Assembly: GCA_910585395.1 (NCBI GenBank)
Contig: CAJUCK010000001.1
Coordinates: 143,632 to 190,309 of the forward strand
DNA from: an uncultured Lachnospiraceae bacterium
GTDB taxonomy: Bacteria; Bacillota; Clostridia; Lachnospirales; Lachnospiraceae
Direction: 5' to 3'
Length of the DNA: 46,678 bases
Shown here: positions 39,290 to 39,514 of the stretch, piece after piece
How the letters are laid out: each line of letters starts with the position of its first letter
How positions within the stretch are numbered: position 1 is the first letter of the stretch
Notes under the pieces: generated by a model
What the model was told of the DNA's origin: nothing
What the model saw: only the letters and a program-made list of their open reading frames with translations
The model's database searches: none
Made by a program: the position numbers and the translations under genes

Positions 39290-39514
39290 ATGGTAAAAAC
39301 TGAATCTGTAAGAAAAATGCAGAATATAGCAGGCGCTGTCTCGATAGATGAATATGAGCGCAGCCTTACAAGGATATCCCGGGAGATAGAGGAAGAAGAT
39401 TATAAACGAAGAGCTCAGATGAGGAATGGCAAGAGGAGAAGTATGCTGGAAGAGCTTGAAGATGTTAACATGCTGGGCAGTATTTTATCGCCCTACGAAT
39501 TGGTGAGAAAATAG
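39290..39514 (+). CDS. Small charged protein, first gene of the RADAR-like operon
   Basis: 74-aa ORF with RBS AAAGAGGGA, ending 23 nt before the ATPase start on the same strand. Confidence 0.7.
   Translation: MVKTESVRKMQNIAGAVSIDEYERSLTRISREIEEEDYKRRAQMRNGKRRSMLEELEDVNMLGSILSPYELVRK

Follow-up and report, generated by a model that had tools for sequence, protein, structure and literature searches.

The 74-codon open reading frame that lies directly upstream of a divergent pair of RADAR anti-phage genes, rdrA and rdrB, was found to be a genuine protein-coding gene under purifying selection, and the three genes are passed on as a unit. On the grounds of its conservation and of its close linkage to rdrA, the ORF was taken to define a RADAR-like operon of three genes. 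The small protein is soluble, lies outside every known family and is probably an accessory regulator of RADAR. The reading preferred here, that it binds RADAR as a regulator, in the favoured version as a brake, and is the third gene of the divergent operon, is tentative, with a probability of roughly 40%; whether the regulation is negative or positive is a guess. The window, i.e., the whole stretch of DNA analysed, comprises 46,678 nucleotides of an uncultured Lachnospiraceae bacterium; the features of the operon are collected in Table 1, and loci of other genomes are numbered L001 onwards.

Table 1: Features of the operon and of the DNA upstream of it (positions in the window).
Feature	Position	Strand	Remarks
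Stem-loop with T-run, likely terminator	39022..39069	+	after flagellin stop 38979; splits flagellin from the small-ORF operon
32-nt block like flagellin promoter region 38133-38164	39163..39194	+	direct repeat D1, 75% identity; overlaps the palindrome
Ribosome-binding site of the small ORF, GAAAAGAGGGA	39273..39283	+	7 nt 5' of ATG
Small protein gene, 74 aa	39290..39514	+	first gene of the operon; conserved N- and C-terminal segments, variable basic linker between them
Ribosome-binding site of rdrA, AGGAGGAG	39526..39533	+	kept in the alignment of close loci
rdrA-like P-loop ATPase gene, 964 aa	39538..42432	+	Pfam KAP_NTPase, PADLOC RdrA, AF2/Foldseek
rdrB adenosine deaminase gene, 933 aa	42447..45248	+	TTG start 14 nt past rdrA stop; PADLOC, Pfam, PDB

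Identity of the rdrA-rdrB pair

The RdrA product was matched by Pfam KAP_NTPase (5.5e-5) and by PADLOC RdrA (1.1e-6; residues 50–264, the ATPase core only); its Walker A and B motifs are intact, G62, G65, G67, K68, T69, D214, D215 and D217 being invariant in 74 homologues. Search of the PDB sequences gave no match, even with a profile; for this reason an alignment of 74 sequences was built and folded (AF2, mean pLDDT 77.4). With the resulting model Foldseek returned RdrA chains at all of ranks 1–20 (8hr7, 8hr8, 8hra, 8hrb, 8fnt, 8fnu, 8fnw; E 1.8e-9 to 5.5e-7), the next match being BrxC (3.3e-4); TM against the RdrA chains was just ca. 0.3, a value to be expected of a chain with several domains. 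The RdrB product was matched by PADLOC RdrB (2.9e-40 and 8.5e-34), by Pfam A_deaminase (2.5e-6) and by the solved RdrB chains PDB 8fnw_A and 8fnv_A (1.1e-14); its translation contains the stretches HLH, HVGED and SDDP, which we take to be deaminase motifs. From the RdrB matches, the Foldseek ranks of RdrA and the invariant Walker residues, the pair was accepted as a divergent but recognisable RADAR.

In two related loci rdrB is interrupted, L003 (6914–9718; 194 + 728 aa) and L013 (5904–8704; 329 + 613 aa), and the small ORF and rdrA beside the broken gene are intact; the breaks may be real, recent decay or assembly errors.

Coding evidence for the small gene

The initial annotation had put a 74-aa ORF with a good ribosome-binding site in front of the ATPase gene, and both statements proved correct. 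The ORF runs on the plus strand from ATG 39290 to TAG 39512–39514, and the two peptide stretches quoted for it are present in the translation; the Shine-Dalgarno sequence GAGGG (39278–39282) stands 7 nt ahead of the ATG within the GAAAAGAGGGA block, which is without change in 4/4 aligned close loci (window, L001, L002 and L009), G-rich equivalents being present at this position in L003, L004 and L012. The start of rdrA follows 23 nt past the stop of the small ORF and has its own AGGAGGAG.

Substitutions were counted (Nei–Gojobori) for all 10 pairs among the window and L001–L004. Synonymous excess was observed in 10/10 pairs (Fisher p 5.5e-3 to 4e-15); dN/dS was 0.05–0.43 in the seven pairs with unsaturated dS, and dN of the small gene amounted to 0.8–1.4 times that of rdrA over the same ten. 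Kept length and frame, synonymous excess and a conserved ribosome-binding site together establish the ORF as a gene; the homologue in Eubacterium sp. 14-2 is already annotated by NCBI, as a hypothetical protein. The stretch 39440–39700, folded to look for an RNA element at the junction of the small ORF with rdrA, was no better than its shuffles (z −0.67).

Linkage to rdrA and gene order

Scanning of one genome per species gave four loci with RdrA 58–86% identical to that of the window, and five further related RdrA loci were obtained from a metagenome scan. The tblastn search upstream of rdrA homologues, which the initial annotation had proposed as a check, returned a full-length, gap-free match of 74 residues directly upstream of rdrA in 9/9 of these loci (RdrA 57–86% identical to the window's; E 2.5e-17 to 4.6e-40). 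Together with the short gap to rdrA in the window, this bears out the tight linkage to the ATPase gene that had been claimed. Some of the small proteins are identical (L009 = L001; L010 = L011 = L013 = L004), so that the nine loci are not independent and reduce to five distinct non-self sequences, of 89, 66, 49, 47 and 46% identity.

The immediate neighbours of the trio differ between subclades. The order in the window, L001 and L002 is: glycosyltransferases, flagellin, small gene, rdrA and rdrB, followed by FliD in opposite orientation (in the window, flagellin gene 38206–38979; FliD 45350–46621, minus strand); that in L003 and L004 is: sugar-nucleotide genes, CgeB-like gene, small gene, rdrA, rdrB and flagellin, L003 alone having an extra 123-aa ORF with the CgeB-like gene upstream of the small gene. 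In G229 (99% complete), a genome of the same genus, an empty interval of 80 bp separates the glycosyltransferase gene from FliD, and neither an RdrA nor a small-ORF match was obtained with the queries used. The small gene was assigned to RADAR because the trio stays intact through these changes of neighbours, because G229 is devoid of the whole block, because the small-protein family and the RdrA clade have matching distributions, and because the small gene is no general component of flagellar loci (see below).

Other observations on the surroundings were as follows. G229 has no flagellin paralogue either; the copies of the small gene-rdrA-rdrB block with sufficient flank (window 35870–46621; L001–L004, L010–L013) are all placed in a flagellin/flagellar glycosylation cluster, adjoining flagellin; no convincing insertion-site repeats were found around the block.

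Distribution of the small gene

RdrA homologues were searched among 5.8 billion proteins; 181 matches were obtained from 7,999 scored candidates, and the best 120 of the 181 were considered (clusters at 90% identity). Seven clusters have 53–100% identity, and a gap to 36% or less follows among the matches listed. The small gene is confined to this RdrA clade of at least 53% identity, a narrow group of gut Lachnospiraceae. The figure for the longest contig is the same for the distant small-protein member P0141 and RdrA P0020 (167,482), and again for P0009 and RdrA P0023 (8,012); these coincidences are an indirect sign that distant members of the family may also adjoin an RdrA of the same clade.

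An order-wide search with RdrB gave a match in 16/401 genomes, the window's own included (400 others searched). For the comparison of distant loci, 13 of the 15 foreign ones and a second locus of the window's own genome were used, the two left out being situated at contig ends. No upstream ORF resembling the small protein was found at the 13 more distant RADAR loci in which the rdrA start is present (best E 0.83), and in the five closest of the distant loci (RdrB 28–34% identical) the 277–2,889 bp upstream contain no large ORF (all under 150 aa). The small gene is likewise missing from canonical RADAR and from the sister clade (RdrA 33–36% identical). It is from this absence that the gene is regarded as a clade-specific addition and not as a general part of RADAR. 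The proposal of the initial annotation that a conserved ORF would define a new three-gene RADAR subtype thus holds as to conservation and linkage and has to be narrowed in scope, to one RdrA clade and away from the 13 distant loci.

Four hundred other genera of the family yielded just three weak, partial matches to the small ORF (E 1.6e-4 to 8.9e-3), which marks it as not being a general flagellar gene. Two of the three, L006 and L007, were inspected and rejected (the third is L008); they fall inside unrelated large ORFs, by eye those of a multi-pass membrane protein and of an unrelated 432-aa protein.

A second RADAR-like locus was noted in the same genome, ca. 60 kb upstream of the window start (G000:C1:75000-86000; L049). 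It consists of a 444-aa ORF (weak TPR matches), a 174-aa ORF with a P-loop, a 714-aa ORF (PADLOC RdrA 3.7e-9), a 1045-aa RdrB (4.6e-33) and a 220-aa ORF; its rdrA appears split or frameshifted. An ORF of ca. 440–450 aa directly upstream of rdrA is also present in L041, L046 and L047, distant RADAR loci of the same order. These ORFs are weakly similar to one another (22–30% over ca. 125–140 aa, E 2e-8 to 7e-4) and may form another soluble family of RADAR accessories; sub-threshold TPR matches were obtained for the three that were scanned (L046, L047 and L049).

Properties of the small protein

The small protein is hydrophilic (GRAVY −0.86; K+R = 15, D+E = 14). No membrane helix or segment was found from hydropathy in 19-residue windows, the maximum Kyte–Doolittle mean being 0.24; what had been described as a hydrophobic tail is, on these values, not a hydrophobic segment and corresponds to the conserved motif ML.SILSPYEL. 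In the first alignment, of nine rows (window, L001–L004 and four close database proteins), 23/74 columns are invariant and concentrated in N12–S30 and M61–K74; the N-terminal conserved segment is VSIDEYERSLTRISRE, the C-terminal one is the ML.SILSPYEL motif, and the basic stretch that separates them is variable. The AF2 model from 11 sequences has a mean pLDDT of 64.7, and only helix 19–45 was obtained with reasonable confidence (ca. 80). From the two short conserved segments, the variable basic linker and the weak fold of the lone chain we infer that the protein would have little stable fold alone and would fold on a partner. Prediction of a complex of RdrA(1–920) with the small protein gave a score of 0.00 in a run with no controls, a value that speaks neither for nor against binding.

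Searches for relatives: 19 clusters match the small-protein profile among 5.8 billion proteins; in 1.84 billion representatives, searched exhaustively with an HMM, there are six matches, five of them relatives (P0006–P0010) and the longest 291 aa, so that no RdrA-fused form of the small protein was seen. The 291-aa match, the repeat protein P0011 (2e-4), seemed to lead to Prok_Ub and Flagellin_IN motifs, and this lead was dropped because of an hhalign probability of 4.5%. Searches against known families: PDB, by profile, no match at E up to 10; Pfam, with 11 members at E up to 1, just inconsistent sub-threshold matches and no SLATT; ribbon-helix-helix, helix-turn-helix or other DNA-binding families, 0/11 members at E up to 1; PHROGs, no consistent match; PADLOC, no family match at E up to 0.1 in a library that may not hold a Csx27 model; ESM Atlas, best cosine 0.84, without an informative cluster. 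Assignment to PspA_IM30 (Pfam) was rejected at 17.2 bits versus a cut-off of 33.9, in 2/11 members. Among mobile elements, no match was obtained by tblastn in 50,697 phage and 72,556 plasmid records, and none was found in IMG/VR with the profile. By eye, the two distant members P0009 (169 aa) and P0145 (198 aa) have AAGIS-like motif repeats in N-terminal extensions of 100–125 aa, resembling the start of the conserved core.

Origin of the small protein by gene fission, as a detached piece of the longer RdrA of the sister clade, was considered and rejected, because RdrA homologues gave a best E of 0.021 with the small-protein profile (among the matches listed), because the profile against six-frame translations of the 14 distant RADAR loci gave nothing below E 2.1, and because the RdrA alignment is without a clade-specific gap of more than 9 columns.

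Transcription unit

The stem-loop behind the flagellin gene folds with −24.7 kcal/mol (39022–39080; z −3.2, 1/200 shuffles as stable) and is conserved in L001; it was not recovered by the pattern scan because its loop exceeds the limit of the scan. L003 and L004 have a near-consensus promoter, TTGAAA/TTGAAT-N17-TAAAAT/TAGAAT, directly upstream of the small ORF. The hairpin and this promoter together indicate that the small gene heads its own transcription unit, and in the window its promoter must lie within 39076–39280. The promoter candidate of the initial annotation, TGGACT-N17-TATTTT (39192–39220), is present as written; it fits the consensus at 8/12 positions, which is below the scan threshold, and was not picked up by the consensus scan, whose yield of 29 sites is no richer than that of shuffles (22.1 ± 4.8).

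Proposed role and its alternatives

RdrB converts ATP/dATP into ITP/dITP, its activity is boosted by RdrA, and on overexpression it is toxic by itself, as given in the available text of PMC9994260. A brake is favoured among the possible regulators because of this toxicity and of the enhancement by RdrA. The small protein would bind the RADAR machine, most likely RdrA, through an N-terminal helix and, at the C terminus, the motif ML.SILSPYEL, which the variable basic linker would join; made in excess from its promoter-proximal position, it would act like an antitoxin and keep the activity of RdrA/RdrB down in uninfected cells. Upon infection the brake would be displaced or no longer replenished, and activation would follow. 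Against an inhibitor, no fold or family found in the Pfam, PADLOC, PHROG and PDB searches supports this role; the small gene is evidently dispensable for the core function of RADAR, since canonical RADAR and the sister clade do without it; and an intact small ORF beside the broken rdrB of L003 and L013 fits poorly with a pure RdrB antidote.

A more specific form of the brake, which we hold to be unlikely, is a labile, partly disordered switch. The protein would cap or plug the RdrA ring by means of ML.SILSPYEL, its excess would be supplied by a short promoter-proximal transcript, and its removal by phage shut-off or by a phage protein would license RdrA to activate RdrB.

The regulation could also be positive, the small protein serving as an adaptor that aids RdrA-RdrB assembly or as a sensor that is itself the target of a phage product; the variant would then be inactive without it. 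The same linkage and co-evolution data that are used for the brake agree with such a part, and the other soluble ORFs of ca. 440 aa in the slot upstream of rdrA (L041, L046, L047, L049) suggest a variable input module. A sensor of seventy-four residues with a structure of low confidence would nevertheless be a small one, the searches brought up no recognisable binding domain, and the core system, according to the accessible part of PMC9994260, functions as two genes in E. coli; the adaptor or sensor is considered improbable.

As an autoregulator, the protein would control the amount of rdrAB by binding to the promoter of its own gene, and could be bifunctional in the manner of a type II antitoxin. 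To this reading correspond the promoter-proximal place of a small gene, the antitoxin-like size of its product (74 aa), the basic, K/R-rich centre and the segment AVSIDEYERSLTRISRE, which by eye resembles a ribbon-helix-helix strand plus helix, a likeness that no search supports. The searches for DNA-binding families and PDB sequences given above were negative, and the AF2 model is one long helix of low mean confidence with no DNA-binding fold. Conservation of the upstream DNA does not extend from one subclade to another. The imperfect palindrome at 39154–39180, to which the initial annotation had drawn attention, reads as written; it requires an indel, gave no pair in an ungapped inverted-repeat search (seed 6), is eroded in L001 and L002, has no counterpart upstream of L003, L004 and L012, and was rejected as an operator because it is not conserved. 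Transcriptional autoregulation is accordingly judged a doubtful alternative.

The small gene might, thirdly, be a passenger with a function unrelated to RADAR, for example in the flagellin/flagellar glycosylation locus, and merely be co-transcribed with rdrAB. Every locus examined sits among flagellar genes, and on this account a flagellar rather than a RADAR link keeps a small residual probability. Ahead of the small ORF, the 32-nt block of Table 1 is similar to the flagellin promoter region: in the alignment with the flagellin upstream regions of the window, L001 and L002, AATTTTCT.GAA is invariant. This repeat could be a shared regulatory element, a product of gene conversion or due to chance. 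The flagellin promoter block itself has −35/−10 elements TTGAAT-N17-TGgTAAAAT, and in L002 both 32-nt copies have the variant GAATTATC in common.

RNA-type contigs, too, were found on the small ORF and not on rdrA. In 2/2 RNA-type runs from two studies the only contigs on 38961–42500 cover 39285–39528 (244 nt) and 39294–39513 (220 nt), without mismatch and at ca. 3x depth; run X2, RNA-seq of a mouse gut metagenome, gave in addition a flagellin contig ending at 38960, the kind of run X1 is only guessed to be RNA, and two DNA-type runs cover the whole stretch. These contigs, a hint of expression that counts for the preferred reading as well, weakly suggest that RNA of the small ORF is more abundant than that of rdrA, contigs of ca. 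3x depth showing neither strand, ends nor level; the lack of rdrA contigs in X1 and X2 is not evidence that rdrA is silent, and that conclusion was discarded. Against a passenger stand the near-absence of the small ORF from the 400 other genera, with two of the three weak matches inside unrelated large ORFs, its constant place beside rdrA as the flagellar neighbours change, and the same-genus genome that keeps flagellar genes without it; taken together, they make this explanation quite unlikely.

A spurious ORF, or one that is only a cis-acting leader or RNA element, as short length, lack of a known family and a low-confidence structure model might be taken to mean, is contradicted by the selection data (synonymous excess in every pair, length and reading frame kept at 46–49% amino-acid identity), by the conserved ribosome-binding site and by an RNA fold like that of shuffles, and is highly improbable.

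Relation to known systems and significance

Like two-gene RADAR (rdrA-rdrB), the operon encodes a large P-loop/AAA+ ATPase and then a divergent adenosine deaminase of ca. 900 aa; unlike it, the RdrA is very divergent, the PADLOC RdrA model fitting its ATPase core only, and a third, small gene heads the operon. Three-gene RADAR in print, as far as the available parts of PMC7699616 and PMC11676413 go, has a Csx27 (rdrC) or a SLATT (rdrD) accessory, both of them small membrane proteins, and this agrees with the remark of the initial annotation that no described RADAR subunit is similar. The extra small gene is a feature common to these loci and to the present one. The protein here differs in being hydrophilic, in having no membrane segment and in being encoded upstream of rdrA; it is neither a small membrane protein like Csx27 (RdrC), nor does it have the SLATT domain and transmembrane helix of RdrD, and it was for want of a membrane helix in a hydrophilic chain that it was assigned to neither. 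In CC-licensed PMC papers and bioRxiv no soluble small protein upstream of rdrA was found described; subscription papers or supplements could hold one.

The operon may also be compared with type II toxin-antitoxin operons in which the antitoxin gene stands first, e.g., those of RelB, ParD and CcdA. The resemblance to them is one of working only: a small, partly disordered, promoter-proximal protein precedes genes with a product that becomes toxic through overactivity. The searches gave no relation to the antitoxins in sequence or fold, no conserved operator is present here, and a giant ATPase-deaminase machine takes the place of the small toxin downstream.

The family is tiny and limited to uncultured or little-studied gut Lachnospiraceae. 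In it the small protein represents a third, non-membrane type of RADAR accessory; taken with the ORFs of ca. 440 aa, the small gene suggests a slot for variable input in front of rdrA. The available text of PMC9994260 leaves unsettled how infection is sensed by RdrA and how RdrB is then switched on, and a small, soluble, co-evolving partner encoded ahead of rdrA would offer a natural handle on this step, being open to deletion, titration, pull-down and imaging on the ring. Should the switch form of the brake prove true, RADAR would gain a defined mechanism of triggering, something still to be obtained from the two-gene systems.
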